A stretch of 39,767 bases of DNA from a phage. Every line of letters starts with the position of its first letter. Within the stretch, counting starts at the first letter, position 1. The position numbers were made by a program, and so were the translations under genes. Below are positions 5,613-36,611 of the stretch, one piece after another. The stretch is from the sequence record PV935351.1; one strand, given 5' to 3'. The notes under the pieces were generated by a model. That model had not been told where the DNA came from. It did not search any database and worked only from the letters and a program-made list of their open reading frames with translations.

Positions 5613-5662
5613 GACTCAAGGTCATGACTCAAAGTCGTGGCCTTCATGATTAACCCTAACTC
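5611..5662 (+). ncRNA. conserved structured RNA element, copy A (candidate RNase III site)
   Basis: TAGACTCAAGGTCAT, 11 variable nt, GTGGCCTTCATGATTAACCCTAACT; the same element recurs at 12952 and 36562. Confidence 0.55.
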
Positions 5663-7169: not shown

Positions 7170-7178
7170 CTAAACGTC

Positions 7179-7212
7179 AACCCAGTGGTCTCCGGACTGC
7201 TGGGTTTCTTTG
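7179..7212 (+). terminator. intrinsic terminator after ligase (TE-like early terminator)
   Basis: CCCAGTGG / CTGCTGGG stem (two G-U pairs) with an 8-nt loop, followed by TTTCTTTG. Confidence 0.65.
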
Positions 7213-7975: not shown

Positions 7976-8387
7976 TGATTGCATTGACCATGACTACAAC
8001 TGCAAGAGCTACGCAAATGTGTATTCCAAAGCTCATGGTAGAAACTTTGGTCTTCACCGAATAGTTCTAGCGGAGAAGTTAGGAGTCGATGTGGCTGAAA
8101 TGAAGGGAGTAGCGATGCACTCTTGTGACAATAAGAGATGTGTCAATCCTGAACACTTACAGTTAGGGACCCAGAGTCAGAACGTACTGGATGCACACTC
8201 AAGAGGACTGGTAAACGTGGTGTCTGGAGAAAAGCACCCAATGATCAAGCTCACAGACGAGCAGATTGCATATGTTCTGGGTAGTACGCTAGGCGCGAGA
8301 GCGATTGGCAGAGAGCTGGGAGTTTCACATTCGTTAATAAGCAGGTTGAGAAATGGAAAAGCAAGAGCTTCCCAGCGAGTGGGCTGA
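7965..8387 (+). CDS. HNH homing endonuclease
   Basis: 140 aa; HNH core HSCDNKRCVNPEHLQLGTQSQN; C-terminal HTH-like segment; AT-richer with AGA/AGG codons. Confidence 0.8.
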   Translation: MTSSDCIDHDYNCKSYANVYSKAHGRNFGLHRIVLAEKLGVDVAEMKGVAMHSCDNKRCVNPEHLQLGTQSQNVLDAHSRGLVNVVSGEKHPMIKLTDEQIAYVLGSTLGARAIGRELGVSHSLISRLRNGKARASQRVG

Positions 8388-8460
8388 GAGAAAATTTGAG
8401 GAGACAGGTAACGTCGATTACCTTCATCTCTACAACCAATGGAAGGAGCGTGGTCTATGA
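8353..8460 (+). CDS. hypothetical small ORF (gene 1.8 position)
   Basis: 35 aa, overlaps the HNH gene end and the gene 2 start; no clear RBS. Confidence 0.25.
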
Positions 8461-8615
8461 CTGACGTAGAAAAGAAATACATCGTGGAGCTTGAGGGTCG
8501 CGTTCAGTCATTCGATGTTCCGGTGTACGCAAAGTCTCTTGAAGAGGCTACCCTGAAGTCCCAAGAGTATGAGGACGCGGGGTTTGTGGTCGGACGGATT
8601 CGTCCTGAGACCTAA
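8457..8615 (+). CDS. 2: gp2-like inhibitor of host RNA polymerase
   Basis: 52 aa [31 protein letters not shown]...[11 protein letters not shown]; resembles recalled T7 gp2; GGAAGGAG RBS. Confidence 0.75.
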
Positions 8616-8633
8616 ACTATCACTGTAGGACAG
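8611..8633 (+). promoter_or_regulatory. phage RNAP promoter (variant, G at -3)
   Basis: CCTAAACTATCACTGTAGGAC; overlaps the gene 2 stop; precedes the SSB gene. Confidence 0.6.
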
Positions 8634-8673
8634 ACGTCCAGTTAGTAACTTTAAAAATAGGAGATTTACACCG

Positions 8674-9372
8674 ATGGCTAAAGAGCAACTGAAGACTTTC
8701 ACCACTCCGGTAGCTGGTATCGTTGAGCCTTACGCATGGCTGAACAAAGCAGACACCAAGTTTAATGATCGCGGTGAGCATAAGGTTAACCTGACTTTCG
8801 ACCTGAGCAACCCGAAGGTCCGTAAGATGATTGATGTCTTACAGAAGATTCACGACGATGCGTATGCGAAAGCACTCGCAGACCACGAGAAGAACCCACC
8901 TCAGGTTCAGCGTGGCAAGAAGCCTATTGAACCACGAGAAGGCGACATGCCGTGGATTGAGAATGGTGACGGTACTGTTACCCTGAAGTTTAAATGCTTT
9001 GCGTCTTACCTGAAGGATGGTAAGTCAGAGCCTATCGTATTACGGTTCTACGACACCGATGCTAAGTTAATCCGTGACGTCCCGAATATTGGCGCTGGCT
9101 CAAAGCTGAAGGTCAAGTTTAAAGTCCTGCCGTTCAAGTGGAACGCTGCGACTGGTGCAAGCGTTAAGCTCCAGCTTGAGTCCTGCCTTCTGGTAGAACT
9201 GAAGGAATGGAAAGGTGATGGTTCTGGTGGAGATGGTGGCTGGGGTGATGATGAAGACCTAGGCACTGGCTACAAAGCGTCAACCGATGGTGACTTCGGT
9301 GACGATGACTTCGGTGACGATGGTTCCGAAGGCGGTGACGACTCCAACTCTGGTGGCGATTACGACTTCTAA
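8674..9372 (+). CDS. 2.5: single-stranded DNA-binding protein
   Basis: 232 aa; GKKP...EGDMPW and GASVKLQLES match recalled T7 gp2.5; acidic C-tail ending in Phe (GGDYDF). Confidence 0.95.
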   Translation: MAKEQLKTFTTPVAGIVEPYAWLNKADTKFNDRGEHKVNLTFDLSNPKVRKMIDVLQKIHDDAYAKALADHEKNPPQVQRGKKPIEPREGDMPWIENGDGTVTLKFKCFASYLKDGKSEPIVLRFYDTDAKLIRDVPNIGAGSKLKVKFKVLPFKWNAATGASVKLQLESCLLVELKEWKGDGSGGDGGWGDDEDLGTGYKASTDGDFGDDDFGDDGSEGGDDSNSGGDYDF

Positions 9373-9824
9373 TGGCCCAATGGTCTGCAAAACGGGGGCA
9401 CTCTGTGGGTGCCTACCGCTCTGGACTTGAAGCCAAGAACCAGCAGTGGCTGGAACAGAACGGCGTCAAAGCGGAGTACGAAAGCCATTATATCAACTAT
9501 GTGATTCCGGCTTCCGACCACAAGTACACACCAGATTTTATCCTTCCTAACGGTATTATCGTGGAGACCAAAGGTATCTTCGATAGTGATGACCGTAAGA
9601 AGCACCTTCTGGTACGAGAACAGCACCCAGAGTTAGACATTCGGTTCGTGTTCTCAAGTTCCCGCTCCAAGTTATACAAAGGGTCTCCGACCACGTATGG
9701 CGCATGGTGCGAAAAGAACGGCTATAAGTATGCCGACAAGTTTATCCCGGTTGAGTGGCTGAAAGAGGCGACTGTACGTCTTCCTTCCGGCATCCTCATC
9801 CCTAAGAAGAAAGGAGTTAAGTGA
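9372..9824 (+). CDS. 3: endonuclease I (Holliday junction resolvase)
   Basis: 150 aa; YVIPASDHKYTPDF...GIIVETKG...DDRKKHLLVREQHPELDIRFVFSSSRSKLYKGSPT matches recalled T7 gp3. Confidence 0.95.
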   Translation: MAQWSAKRGHSVGAYRSGLEAKNQQWLEQNGVKAEYESHYINYVIPASDHKYTPDFILPNGIIVETKGIFDSDDRKKHLLVREQHPELDIRFVFSSSRSKLYKGSPTTYGAWCEKNGYKYADKFIPVEWLKEATVRLPSGILIPKKKGVK

Positions 9825-10315
9825 TGACTCAGAAATATAGACTTAAAGTTAGCCGCTACGGGTGGCCTGAAGGTACTATCGTTACGAAATGTGCGAAAGA
9901 CCCGTACCCAACGCCATTATCGACTCTGGTAGAAACCTCCGAGCGTGGCACCTACAAGCACGGAGCAGAAGGGCATAACACGCAGCCTGATGGTATGTGG
10001 GGGGCATGGGTCTGTGATCATGAACTTGAGGAAATCAAGCCGGAAGAGAAACTCACTGGTGTACAGACCACTCAAGTCCTGCCAGCCTCAAGTGTCCCTC
10101 CTGTCACCGTTAAGCGTGAAGTCCTGACCATCGACAAGATTGGTGTAGGCCAGACGTTCATCGTCCACGGAAAGCCTGAAGAAGTTTATGTGAAGATTAG
10201 CAACTCACACGTCTTCAACCATAAGCGTCTCCAGATGCACACCACGGACGCACAACGCTTCACCCAGCACCTGAATCTAGTGGTCGTAGAAGTGGTGGTG
10301 TACAATGGTAAGTAA
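9824..10315 (+). CDS. hypothetical protein with no T7 counterpart at this position
   Basis: 163 aa from ATG 9824 (AAGGAG RBS; the track start at 9821 is a GTG); no motif recognised. Confidence 0.7.
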   Translation: MTQKYRLKVSRYGWPEGTIVTKCAKDPYPTPLSTLVETSERGTYKHGAEGHNTQPDGMWGAWVCDHELEEIKPEEKLTGVQTTQVLPASSVPPVTVKREVLTIDKIGVGQTFIVHGKPEEVYVKISNSHVFNHKRLQMHTTDAQRFTQHLNLVVVEVVVYNGK

Positions 10316-10763
10316 GGTACAGTTCAACCCACGGTCCCGTACTGACGCTATCTTCGTTCACTGTTCGGCTACCAAGCCAGATATGGACATCGGGGTAGAT
10401 ACCATCCGTATGTGGCACAAGCAGCAAGGCTGGCTGGACGTAGGCTACCACTTTATCATCAAGCGTGATGGCACTGTAGAAGAGGGTCGCCCGGTCAATG
10501 TCGTAGGGTCACACGTTAAGGATTGGAACTCCCGGTCCGTAGGAGTCTGCCTTGTAGGGGGAATTGACGCTAAGGGTCAGTTTGAAGCTAACTTCACTCC
10601 AGCCCAGATGAACTCCCTGCGCAACAAGCTGGCTGACCTGAAGTCCATGTATCCTCAGGCAGAAATCAAAGCACACCATGACGTAGCACCTAAGGCGTGT
10701 CCAAGTTTCGACTTGCAACGCTGGCTGTCTACTAATGAACTGGTCACTTCAGACCGTGGTTAG
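10305..10763 (+). CDS. 3.5: N-acetylmuramoyl-L-alanine amidase (T7 lysozyme)
   Basis: 152 aa; TDAIFVHCSATKP...WLDVGYHFIIKRDGTVEEGR...HHDVAPKACPSFDL...NELVTSDRG nearly identical to recalled T7 gp3.5. Confidence 0.97.
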   Translation: MVSKVQFNPRSRTDAIFVHCSATKPDMDIGVDTIRMWHKQQGWLDVGYHFIIKRDGTVEEGRPVNVVGSHVKDWNSRSVGVCLVGGIDAKGQFEANFTPAQMNSLRNKLADLKSMYPQAEIKAHHDVAPKACPSFDLQRWLSTNELVTSDRG

Positions 10764-10787
10764 TAAACTCTAAAGGAGAATAACTCG

Positions 10788-11003
10788 ATGATTAAACTTA
10801 TTGAATTTCTTGGTCGTCTGGTGGTGCGTGGTTATCGTCGTGCTGCGATACTGGAACGAAAGGTAGAAAAGAAGACTGCTGACAGTGCGGCTGATGCTGC
10901 TGCTCTGGCCGACAAGCTGACCATCGAGTCACTGGAAGCTGGCATGAAGGCTCGTCAGGCTGATACCAAAGCTGACCAATTGGCTCAGTTCTTCAAAGCC
11001 TAA
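10788..11003 (+). CDS. hypothetical protein
   Basis: 71 aa, hydrophobic N-terminus then Ala/Lys-rich helix; AAGGAGA RBS. Confidence 0.6.
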   Translation: MIKLIEFLGRLVVRGYRRAAILERKVEKKTADSAADAAALADKLTIESLEAGMKARQADTKADQLAQFFKA

Positions 11004-11021
11004 ACTATCACCTTAGGGATG
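10999..11021 (+). promoter_or_regulatory. degenerate phage-promoter-like sequence upstream of gene 4
   Basis: CTAAACTATCACCTTAGGGA; two changes at -4/-3 relative to the other promoters. Confidence 0.35.
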
Positions 11022-11041
11022 GGACCGCTAGTCCTGTCCCT
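11015..11041 (+). other. stable hairpin in the gene 4 leader
   Basis: AGGGATGGGA / TCCTGTCCCT 10-bp stem (two G-U pairs), 7-nt loop, followed by TTGTT. Confidence 0.5.
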
Positions 11042-11068
11042 TTGTTCGCATTTGTGATTAAGGAGTGA

Positions 11069-12948
<1,880 letters not shown>

Positions 12949-12951
12949 GTC

Positions 12952-12998
12952 TAGACTCAAGGTCATTCACATCGAGTGGCCTTTATGATTAGACTAAA
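12952..12998 (+). ncRNA. conserved structured RNA element, copy B (candidate RNase III site)
   Basis: TAGACTCAAGGTCAT, 9 variable nt, GTGGCCTTTATGATTAGACTAAAC. Confidence 0.55.
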
Positions 12999-13011
12999 CG
13001 GAGGATTAACC

Positions 13012-13413
13012 ATGTTTGATTGCATTGAGTGGACCGGGTGTCGAGATAGTTTCGGCTATGGTATGCGAAAGGTCAACGGGAAGGTCCGTAGACTACATCT
13101 GATAGCCTTCGAGGAGGCGAATGGTCCGATACCAGAGGGAATGGTCGTGAGGCACAAATGTGACAACCCTGCGTGCTACAATCCAGAACACTTGGAGCTG
13201 GGGACAAGGGCTGAGAACAATCACGATAGAGACGTTAGAGGTCGAACCGCTAAAGGCGTGCGACATGGAAGCTCTAAGCTTACACCTGAAATAGTACAAG
13301 AGGCCAAGGCTCTTTACGCAGTAGGTGGCTGGACTCACCGCTCATTAGGTAAGAAGTATGGAGTGGGTCACCGCACACTGGCTAGAGCAATTGGAGGAAA
13401 AACATGGACTTAA
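13012..13413 (+). CDS. HNH homing endonuclease
   Basis: 134 aa from ATG 13012 (GGAGG RBS); HKCDNPACYNPEHLELGTRAENNHD core; C-terminal HTH-like segment; AGA/AGG codons. Confidence 0.8.
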   Translation: MFDCIEWTGCRDSFGYGMRKVNGKVRRLHLIAFEEANGPIPEGMVVRHKCDNPACYNPEHLELGTRAENNHDRDVRGRTAKGVRHGSSKLTPEIVQEAKALYAVGGWTHRSLGKKYGVGHRTLARAIGGKTWT

Positions 13414-15572
13414 GTAACGTATATGGGTCTGACATCGAGACCAACGGTCTCCTTGATACAGTCTCCCAGTTTCACTGTGGGGTCCTGATTAACGCCGAGT
13501 CGAATGAGACCCTTAAGTATGGGGTAGCTCCGATGGTCGGTATCGTCGGTGGCTTCAAAGAGTATGTACAGAAGGTGGAAGAGATTGCCGCATCACCTGA
13601 TGGTATGCTGGTATTCCACAACGGTATCAACTATGACGTCCCGGCTATTGACAAGCTGAAGCGTCTGTACTTTGGGAAACGCTTTAACTTCCCGAAACAC
13701 AAGATGATTGATACCTTGGTGCTTGGGCGCTTGATGTATCCAAACATTAAGTTCTCAGACATGGGCGCAGTGAAAGCTGGTCGTCTGCCACCTAAGATGA
13801 TGGGACGCCAGTCTCTTGAGGCTTGGGGCTATCGTCTCGGTGAGATGAAAGGTGAGTACAAACACGATTACGTTGCCAAGTGCAAGGCTGAAGGTATCGA
13901 ATATAAGGCTGGGGACGAATGGTTGTTCCCATCTCAGGAGATGCTAGACTATAACGTTCAAGACGTTGTGGTCACACTGGCGTTGTTCAAGAAGTTCCTG
14001 ACTGACAAGTATTACTTCCAGTCTGAACAGTTCGCTTTCGACCAGATTTATGCGTTGCGTCTGGAACATGATGCTGCGTGGACCTGTGCGAAGATGGAAC
14101 GTAACGGCTATCCGATGAACACCGAGATGGTCGAAGGCTTATATCGTGAACTCACCGTCAAACGTGCAGAGTTGTTGGACAAGCTGCGTTCGACTTTCGG
14201 TAGCTGGTATGCACCAAAGGGAGGCAAGGAGTTCTTCAAGCACCCACGGACAGGCAAGGACCTTCCGAAGTATCCGCGAGTCGTGTATCCTAAGGTCGGG
14301 TCAGTATTCAAGAAGCCGAAGAACAAAGCTCAACGCTTAGGTCTGGAACCTTGCGAGTTCGACTCACGAGACACGATGGAGGGAGCGCCGTTCACACCTA
14401 TCACTTACGTTGAGTTTAATCCGGGAAGCGGGGACCACTTAGCGAAAGTCCTGATGGAGCGTGGCTGGGAGCCTGTGGACTTCACTGACACCGGGAAACC
14501 TGTAGTCGATGACGAGACGTTAGAACACGTTAAGTTACCAGACGAAGAGGCTCAGGCTTGCGTAGAGCTGGTCCGTGAGTACCTGGTAGTCCAGAAGCGC
14601 ATCGGTCAGGCTGCTGAAGGTAAGAACGCATGGTTGAAACTTGTAGGTCCAGACGGACGTATGCACGGTTCAATCAACCCATGCGGTGCAGTAACAGGAC
14701 GTGCGACTCATAGTTCACCAAACATGGCTCAGGTCCCTGCTAACGGTGCTCCGTATGGTGAGATTTGCCGGGGTGCTTTCGGTGCAGCTTGGAACAAGAC
14801 GGATGGTAAGCCAGACCCTTGGATTCAAGTGGGTGTGGATGCTTCAGGTCTTGAGCTTCGTTGTCTGGGGAACCGAGCGGCTCCGTTTGATGGTGGTGCC
14901 TATGCGAAGACTGTGGTAGAAGGCGACATCCACTGGGCCAACGCAGTAAACGCTGGGTTAGCACCTAACGTCCCACGCGATAAGGCGAACCACGACCATG
15001 ATGCTTTCCGTAACAACGCTAAGACGTTCATCTATGCGTTCCTGTATGGTGCAGGGGCCGCTAAGATTGGACTGATAGTAGGCGGTGGTAAGAAGGAAGG
15101 TTCAGCTCTCATGAAGAAATTCATTGAGGGTACACCAGCCATCAAAGACCTCAGGGAAGCTGTGAGTAGTACGTTAATCTCAGACTCTAAGTGGGTGGAC
15201 GGAGAGAACATCGTCAAGTGGAAACGCCGTTGGTTGCGTGGACTTGATGGTCGCCGTATCCACATCCGGTCGCCACACTCAGCACTGAACGCCTTACTTC
15301 AAGGCGATGGTGCGGTAGTCTGTAAGCACTGGATTGTCGAGACTGAACGTATGCTTGAAGAGGCAGGGTATGTTCACGGCTGGGAAGGAGACTTTGCGTA
15401 CATGGCATGGGTTCACGACGAATTGCAGATTGCGTGCCGTACTCAGGAGATTGCCGAAGAAGTAGTCAAGATTGCTCAACTTGCTATGCGTAAGGTGGGT
15501 GAGTTCTATAACTTTAAATGTGTCCTTGATACCGAAGGTAAGATTGGACCAACGTGGAAGGAGTGTCACTAA
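13404..15572 (+). CDS. 5: DNA polymerase (family A, T7 gp5 type)
   Basis: 722 aa; N-terminal exonuclease motif SDIETNGL; LEAWGYRLGEMKGEY, KTFIYAFLYGAG and YMAWVHDE match recalled T7 gp5. Confidence 0.98.
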   Translation: MDLSNVYGSDIETNGLLDTVSQFHCGVLINAESNETLKYGVAPMVGIVGGFKEYVQKVEEIAASPDGMLVFHNGINYDVPAIDKLKRLYFGKRFNFPKHKMIDTLVLGRLMYPNIKFSDMGAVKAGRLPPKMMGRQSLEAWGYRLGEMKGEYKHDYVAKCKAEGIEYKAGDEWLFPSQEMLDYNVQDVVVTLALFKKFLTDKYYFQSEQFAFDQIYALRLEHDAAWTCAKMERNGYPMNTEMVEGLYRELTVKRAELLDKLRSTFGSWYAPKGGKEFFKHPRTGKDLPKYPRVVYPKVGSVFKKPKNKAQRLGLEPCEFDSRDTMEGAPFTPITYVEFNPGSGDHLAKVLMERGWEPVDFTDTGKPVVDDETLEHVKLPDEEAQACVELVREYLVVQKRIGQAAEGKNAWLKLVGPDGRMHGSINPCGAVTGRATHSSPNMAQVPANGAPYGEICRGAFGAAWNKTDGKPDPWIQVGVDASGLELRCLGNRAAPFDGGAYAKTVVEGDIHWANAVNAGLAPNVPRDKANHDHDAFRNNAKTFIYAFLYGAGAAKIGLIVGGGKKEGSALMKKFIEGTPAIKDLREAVSSTLISDSKWVDGENIVKWKRRWLRGLDGRRIHIRSPHSALNALLQGDGAVVCKHWIVETERMLEEAGYVHGWEGDFAYMAWVHDELQIACRTQEIAEEVVKIAQLAMRKVGEFYNFKCVLDTEGKIGPTWKECH

Positions 15573-22321: not shown

Positions 22322-22361
22322 AACCCCTTGGGTGCCTTCGGGTGCTTGAGGGGTTTTTTTG
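22322..22361 (+). terminator. late terminator (Tphi-like)
   Basis: AACCCCTTGGG...CTTGAGGGGTTTTTTTG; GC-rich hairpin plus U7 tract, close to recalled T7 Tphi. Confidence 0.85.
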
Positions 22362-36561: not shown

Positions 36562-36611
36562 TAGACTCAAGGTCATTACTATATGTAGTGGCCTTTATGG
36601 TTAACACTAAC
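36562..36611 (+). ncRNA. conserved structured RNA element, copy C (candidate RNase III site)
   Basis: TAGACTCAAGGTCAT, 11 variable nt, GTGGCCTTTATGGTTAACACTAACT; sits where T7 has the R18.5 site. Confidence 0.6.

Follow-up and report, generated by a model that had tools for sequence, protein, structure and literature searches.

The window analysed here is the whole stretch of 39,767 nucleotides of phage DNA in sequence record PV935351.1, which comes from a K1F-like Kayfunavirus (T7 group, Studiervirinae); for its segment 10500-11600 there are matches in 221 phage records (80-97% identity), mainly Kayfunavirus with Escherichia and Salmonella as hosts. The local gene order begins with the amidase gene 3.5 (10305-10763) and continues with a small open reading frame of 71 aa on the + strand (10788-11003, from the ORF list, annotated as "hypothetical protein" in ASO2B, Pipis and K1F), a promoter-hairpin element and gene 4, which according to the ORF list and the annotation of relatives encodes a primase-helicase of 566 aa (11072-12772, + strand). 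An earlier reading made from the sequence alone (the sequence-only reading) had placed the element ahead of the primase-helicase gene, and gene 4 does come next, preceded by a directly readable Shine-Dalgarno sequence AAGGAG (11060-11065, + strand) for which a ribosome-binding site is annotated at the matching place in Pipis.

In some close relatives the hairpin tail and gene 4 are separated by an insert, which is a 60-aa ORF with a single transmembrane segment in Pipis-like phages (L002, phage Pipis, 1073-1252) and a predicted tRNA-Thr(CGT) in ST31-like phages (L006, 1108-1186). The ribosome-binding sequence TAAGGAGTGACC is duplicated and flanks the Pipis ORF insert, which makes this spot an insertion hotspot, as for T7 gene 3.8.

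Promoter-like sequence and hairpin ahead of gene 4

The phage RNA polymerase promoter-like sequence CCTAAACTATCACCTTA occupies positions 10999-11015 of the + strand (-17 to -1) and was recognised with a consensus, CCTAAACTATCACTATAGG(G/A)A, derived from ten other clean sites in the window. With up to three mismatches allowed, this 17-mer occurs 12 times in the window against 0.06 expected. From -17 to -5 the gene 4 site agrees with the consensus of the ten promoters at 13 of 13 bases, and the stop codon TAA of the 71-aa ORF (11001-11003) sits within it at -15 to -13. The two changes at -4/-3 that the sequence-only reading had described are present at 11012-11013 (+ strand), with C for the consensus T at -4 and T for the consensus A at -3, and the site therefore has CTTA in place of the TATA melting region at -4 to -1. 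The predicted transcription start is G11016 (+ strand), from alignment with the other window promoters and with the annotated start of T7 phi3.8 (11180); it is the first G of a GGGA start (11016-11019), of the GGGA/GGA type, and also the first base of the hairpin.

The change occurs in every Kayfunavirus-type copy found. Among 17 distinct Kayfunavirus-type versions of the site in IMG/VR, positions -4 to -1 read CTTA in 16 and CTAA in one, with TATA in none; K1F itself has CTTA, and -17 to -5 is perfectly conserved across the K1F clade. The identical CT variant, TAATACGACTCACCTTAGG, is part of the barcoded T7 promoter library of Komura et al. (PMC5937735), where it gave 3.63 RNA/DNA reads and the wild type a mean of 169 ± 19, hence about 2% activity, a figure that comes from one barcode, in vitro, on a linear template and with T7 rather than K1F polymerase, and so serves as an analogy and not as a measurement of the gene 4 site. 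Other variants in that library reached 138-161 (-2A) and 57 (-3T/-2A). By this analogy the strength of the gene 4 copy is probably some 50-fold below that of the consensus, and the earlier description of a weakened promoter thus receives indirect support, both from the library and from the presence of CT in all Kayfunavirus-type copies.

Two other explanations of the CT change were rejected. Selection to lengthen the RNA stem does not account for it, as the consensus TATA pairs with UUUG at least as well, and neither does an overlapping coding constraint, since the upstream ORF ends at 11003 and -4/-3 are non-coding. Two further sites in the window also depart from the consensus: the promoter before gene 2.5 (8615-8631) has G at -3 (CACTGTAGG), a change shared by K1F, and a promoter-like sequence with three mismatches, AACAATCACGATAGAGA, lies at 13216-13232 inside an HNH endonuclease ORF (12976-13413), just 5' of the DNA polymerase gene (13404), where it may be a degenerate promoter or a chance match.

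The hairpin spans 11016-11040 of the + strand, with a 5' arm GGGAUGGGAC (11016-11025), a loop CGCUA (11026-11030) and a 3' arm GUCCUGUCCC (11031-11040); in DNA letters it reads GGGATGGGAC CGCTA GTCCTGTCCC, and TTTGTTCGCATTTGTG comes next. Read-through RNA gains an 11th pair, A11015-U11041. The 10-bp stem AGGGATGGGA/TCCTGTCCCT proposed earlier (11015-11024 / 11032-11041) is real and, counted in that frame, C11025-G11031 is its 11th pair. Two of the stem pairs are G.U wobbles, which identifies an RNA helix of the + strand: this strand folds at -17.0 kcal/mol (z -4.1; none of 200 shuffles as good) and the complement at -13.0. Of all local hairpins in the 39.7 kb window, that of gene 4 ranks among the five strongest, a group that also includes an early-terminator-like hairpin (7176) and a Tphi-like one (22323). 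An Rfam covariance-model scan of 10700-11400 returned no match on the element and two chance-level hits elsewhere (E 3 and 7). The stem end and the single-stranded tail behind it form the sequence CCCTTTGTTCGC (11038-11049, + strand), which is found once in the window and contains the invariant alignment columns described below.

Counterparts in T7, T3 and other phages

By position and sequence, the element is the Kayfunavirus ortholog of T7 phi3.8 together with the possible RNase III site R3.8. The T7 promoter phi3.8 is annotated at 11180, and the unit (T7 11180-11212) reads TAATTGAACTCACTAAA-GGGAGACC-ACAGC-GGTTTCCC-TTTGTTCGCATT. In both phages it lies between gene 3.5 (amidase) with a small ORF and gene 4, and in both an off-consensus class II promoter is followed by a hairpin from +1 (GGGA...UCCC) and then by CCCTTTGTTCGCATT, the 15 nt after the stem being identical in T7 and the window (11038-11052). 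The two differ in the off-consensus positions (-13, -12, -11 and -2 in T7, -4 and -3 in the window) and in the stem, which has 8 bp in T7 (GGGAGACC), extended by AAA/UUU, and 10-11 bp in the window (GGGAUGGGAC). T7 also has a lower stem, UGAAC/GUUCG plus AAU/AUU, without counterpart in the window phage, and it carries the homing-endonuclease gene 3.8 between tail and gene 4; in T7 relatives without gene 3.8 the tail runs straight into ...ATTGTTGATTAAGGAATAACCATATG of gene 4, as it does in the window. The T7 class II pause signal, which we take to be ATCTGTT, is partly matched by CCTTTGTT in the window and CCTCTGTT in K1F, and we make no claim from this match.

The gene 4 upstream regions of relatives, the comparison that the sequence-only reading had proposed, keep the promoter-hairpin unit across genera of the Studiervirinae: besides T7 it is found in T3, 285P-like phages, fPS-59 (where the promoter is annotated), Klebsiella Przondovirus-like contigs and others. 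The T3 unit 5' of gene 4 (NC_047864, about 10601-10674) reads AATTAACACTCACTAAAGGGAGAC-TTAAC-GTTTCCCTTTGTTC and is built like that of the window; its promoter has T3 specificity and is off the T3-type consensus at -10, and it differs from the window in a 7 bp stem and in its tail, UUUGUUCUCGC. The fusion of promoter and hairpin is ancestral, occurring as it does in T7, T3 and other genera, and is no product of recent decay; the wording that the region of a weakened promoter "now serves" as an attenuator or processing site is not borne out.

In lineage after lineage the gene 4 site is off its own lineage's consensus, at differing positions: -13/-12/-11/-2 in T7-like phages, -10 in T3-like phages, two substitutions with a one-base shortening in 285P-like phages, and the changes described above in the K1F type. 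Only the L110 phage has a near-consensus gene 4 promoter. A weak promoter at this position is thus the rule, the hairpin and tail being the constant part. In a third Kayfunavirus subgroup the gene 4 site carries a T3-like AACACTCACTAAAGGGA, off at -10/-9, among promoters otherwise of the AACTATCAC type; compared with the window, the promoter segment of this subgroup is 65% identical, less than the roughly 83% of the coding background, and the segment from tail to ATG is 94% identical, so that hairpin and tail are kept despite the off-specificity promoter. The T3-like sequence among otherwise K1F-type promoters can be seen in L019 (1125-1203) and L125 (10383). This mixture of promoter types suggests that the unit in this subgroup was exchanged by recombination with a phage of other promoter specificity. 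As judged from these sequence comparisons, the promoter is the expendable part of the unit.

Hairpins that begin with the transcript are not confined to gene 4. The 5' stem-loop of the T7 phi10 leader, presumably GGGAGACCACAACGGTTTCCC, likewise starts at +1 of a phage promoter and has almost the sequence of the T7 phi3.8 hairpin; phi10 differs in being a strong consensus class III promoter and in having no UUUGUUCGC tail. In the window itself, the phi10-type promoter (21022) has a hairpin at its start as well, and in 285P-like contigs (L089, L098, L088) several other class II promoters have hairpins from +1, for example GGGAGAC-ACUAAC-GUUUCCC and GGGACAG...CUGUUCCC, which indicates that promoter-hairpin fusions recur in the T7 group.

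The stem sequences at gene 4 vary by lineage, yet pairing is kept. The arms (5'/3') are GGGAUGGGAC/GUCCUGUCCC in the window type, GGGAUGAGAC/GUCUUGUCCC in the L013/L015 subgroup, GGGAUGACC/GGUUGUCCC in the third Kayfunavirus subgroup, GGGAGACC/GGUUUCCC in T7 and GGGAGAGCC/GGUUUCUCCC in 285P-like phages. G.U pairs are retained, the L013/L015 stem, compared with that of the window, has G-C replaced by A-U through compensatory change, and the loops (CGCUA, CAUGA, CAAUU and others) are unconstrained. RNAalifold recovers the helix, with both sides changed in four of eight pairs. An alignment of 39 sequences has 92.6% of its cells paired, where shuffles give 78.6% (none of 500 as high) and slid controls 45-64%, figures that lean towards the structure because the alignment was fitted to it by the model. 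Folding of the + strand RNA is favoured over that of the - strand by 3.6-4.5 kcal/mol in four lineages, so that selection acts on the transcript: the hairpin is under selection as + strand RNA. In every lineage it begins exactly at +1.

Using a covariance model built from 22 representatives, we found exactly one copy of the unit per genome across genera, the window copy lying at 10995-11074. The sequence C-CU-UGUUC after the stem is invariant in 22 representatives, which come from at least five genera, and is as conserved as the promoter core TCAC. It stays constant between genera even though the identity of their gene 4 proteins is only about 55-60%, and is as conserved even where the T7 pairing partner (promoter -13 to -9) is absent, as in K1F-type phages. 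A search with the pattern GGGAN{8,26}CCCTTTGTTCGC matched mostly unrelated contigs, and hits were used only if a T7-type promoter preceded them.

Readings of the hairpin and its tail

The account that we favour, and hold to be somewhat probable, is that the unit combines a processing or decay boundary in read-through RNA with a weak promoter that adds hairpin-led gene 4 transcripts. Its parts would be a deliberately weak promoter for the phage polymerase, the conserved hairpin formed by the first 25 bases of its transcript, and the invariant UUUGUUCGC tail, 20-30 nt before the gene 4 ribosome-binding site. The bulk of the RNA crossing the site would come from upstream class II promoters (e.g. 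that at 8615), and in this RNA the hairpin would mark the boundary: an endonuclease (RNase III in T7) would cut in or beside the conserved tail, leaving a gene 2.5-3.5 message with a protective 3' hairpin and exposing the 5' end of the gene 4 message. Gene 4 transcripts that start at the weak promoter, a minority, would begin with the hairpin and so be 5'-protected. The expected outcome would be a step down in the mRNA of the replication genes (genes 4-6), like that downstream of R3.8 in T7. Published T7 work describes R3.8 and phi3.8 as paired, with the phi3.8 start just 5' of the R3.8 cut, and reports a sustained drop in read coverage downstream of R3.8, genes 3.8-6.5 being expressed at a lower level (PMC6938266). 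The constant position of the hairpin at +1 counts against this account, as it implies that protection of the promoter's own transcripts matters too. A literature search for Kayfunavirus transcriptome data found nothing relevant. The earlier suggestion of a processing site tuning gene 4 agrees with the phi3.8/R3.8 annotation of the T7 ortholog and with the coverage drop there; the T7-type lower stem that a classical RNase III substrate needs was not detected in the window phage.

The missing lower stem counts against the favoured account and also against the stricter possibility, which we regard as tentative, that the element is a true RNase III site, fully equivalent to R3.8, at which the host enzyme would cut read-through RNA at the 3' base of the hairpin (about 11041-11044). 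The record of the refactored T7.1 annotates "T7 promoter phi3.8", "possible RNase III site R3.8" and a stem-loop, RSL_R3.8 (-16 to +33), in which the promoter forms the 5' arm and UGAAC (-13 to -9) pairs with the tail GUUCG; an ortholog so annotated speaks for a cut in the window as well, although R3.8 itself is only "possible/putative" in that record. The arrangement of a promoter followed by an RNase site, described as common in T7 (PMC6938266), points the same way. In Kayfunavirus, however, pairing of the flanks is no better than in shuffled flanks (z +0.46 in the window, against -1.4 in T7), and the possible flank pairs are only AAC/GUU or AUCAC/GUGAU, neither of which is conserved. The roughly two helical turns of an upper and a lower stem around an internal loop were thus not detected, only the upper stem of 11 bp being found, and by itself a helix of that length makes a marginal substrate for RNase III. 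The tail of the window is nevertheless identical to that of T7 at position 11203, within the tail, which we take to be the R3.8 cut.

The gene 4 hairpin also lacks the ACUCAAGGUC...GGCCUU motif of the other RNase III-like hairpins of the window. Two of these (5614-5645 and 36565-36596) are near-identical, ACTCAAGGTCAT...GTGGCCTT, with -16.1 and -14.4 kcal/mol, and a third begins with GGACTCAAGGTC at 2528-2540; all three share the motif and follow promoters, at positions matching the T7 RNase III sites R1.1, R18.5 and R1. Two candidate features were tried and dropped. A lower stem AUCAC (11007-11011)/GUGAU (11054-11058) plus CCU/AGG, from the minimum-energy fold of -30 to +70, was discarded because its pairs are lost in the L013/L015 subgroup and the flank duplex energies match those of shuffles, and an RNase E motif was discarded because GC/AUU fits RN/WUU in the window and T7 and fails in 285P-like phages.

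Equally tentative is the possibility that the promoter is adequately active in vivo and that the hairpin is mainly a 5'-terminal stem-loop stabilising its own gene 4 mRNA, like the phi10 leader. The start of the hairpin exactly at +1 in all lineages, the hairpins at the phi10-type promoter of the window and at the 285P-like class II promoters, and the perfect conservation of -17 to -5 in the K1F clade are all consistent with it. Against it stand the roughly 2% activity left by the CT change in the T7 system (PMC5937735) and the Kayfunavirus subgroup that has an off-specificity promoter yet retains hairpin and tail, and it would leave the invariant tail after the hairpin unexplained.

We consider it unlikely that the element is a partial intrinsic (class I) terminator, at which some read-through phage polymerases would stop at UUUG and lower the transcription of genes 4-6. 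The hairpin is stable (-17 kcal/mol) with a G+C-rich GGG/CCC base and is followed by UUUGUU, the ASO2B record annotates it as a rho-independent terminator (TransTermHP, WebGeSTer), and the coverage drop past T7 R3.8 fits termination as well as decay. The Tphi-like hairpin after the capsid gene (22323-22354, tail U7G) and the early-terminator-like hairpin after the ligase gene (7176-7207, tail UUUCUUUG) likewise end in ...UUUG, and T7 Tphi stops mostly at the G following the U run. The Tphi-like site has, however, a 14 bp stem of -20.7 kcal/mol and seven U, against three consecutive U at the gene 4 element. Judged by a U run of at least five in eight residues directly after the stem, its tail UUUGUUCG does not qualify, and the element was not called by a scan for sigma-70 promoters and intrinsic terminators, which found zero terminator-like sites in 8000-14000, and published descriptions give T7 a single terminator, Tphi. 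Termination could in any case not be strong, as the essential replication genes further downstream have no promoter ahead of them but this weak one. Of the "U-rich run" in the sequence-only reading there remains the fact that U residues follow the stem, too few of them for a simple terminator, and the sequence gives no support to its attenuator. RNase III cleavage, partial termination and 5' stabilisation are compatible and do not exclude one another.

Still less probable, in our view, is that the promoter-like sequence is no longer a promoter and that the hairpin and the invariant UGUUC tail form a promoter-independent RNA operator, shared by the Studiervirinae, which would set the dosage of the primase-helicase. 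It would be recognised by a specific factor, for which ribosomal protein S1 or a standby ribosome, a phage protein and some nuclease distinct from RNase III are candidates. If true, this would account for a tail that equals the promoter core in conservation, also in phages without the T7 pairing partner. A chance resemblance or a neutral relic without function is hardly credible, given a promoter match far above chance, the hairpin z of -4.1, the covariation across genera and a tail that is invariant while the gene 4 proteins diverge.

Place of the unit in the T7 group

The element is a real conserved unit, the Kayfunavirus member of the kind described for T7 in 1983, and it is ordinary rather than a novel attenuator; a T7 specialist would find nothing surprising in it. 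Its annotation nevertheless differs between records, as the K1F RefSeq record leaves it unannotated and ASO2B makes it a terminator, where by the comparison above it is the counterpart of T7 phi3.8/R3.8. For the engineering of K1F-type phages or the reuse of K1F promoters, the gene 4 copy is probably weak, and the conserved parts are the hairpin and the tail, not the promoter. The broad conservation of the unit points to a long-standing step by which the replication genes come to be expressed below the level of the class II genes upstream.
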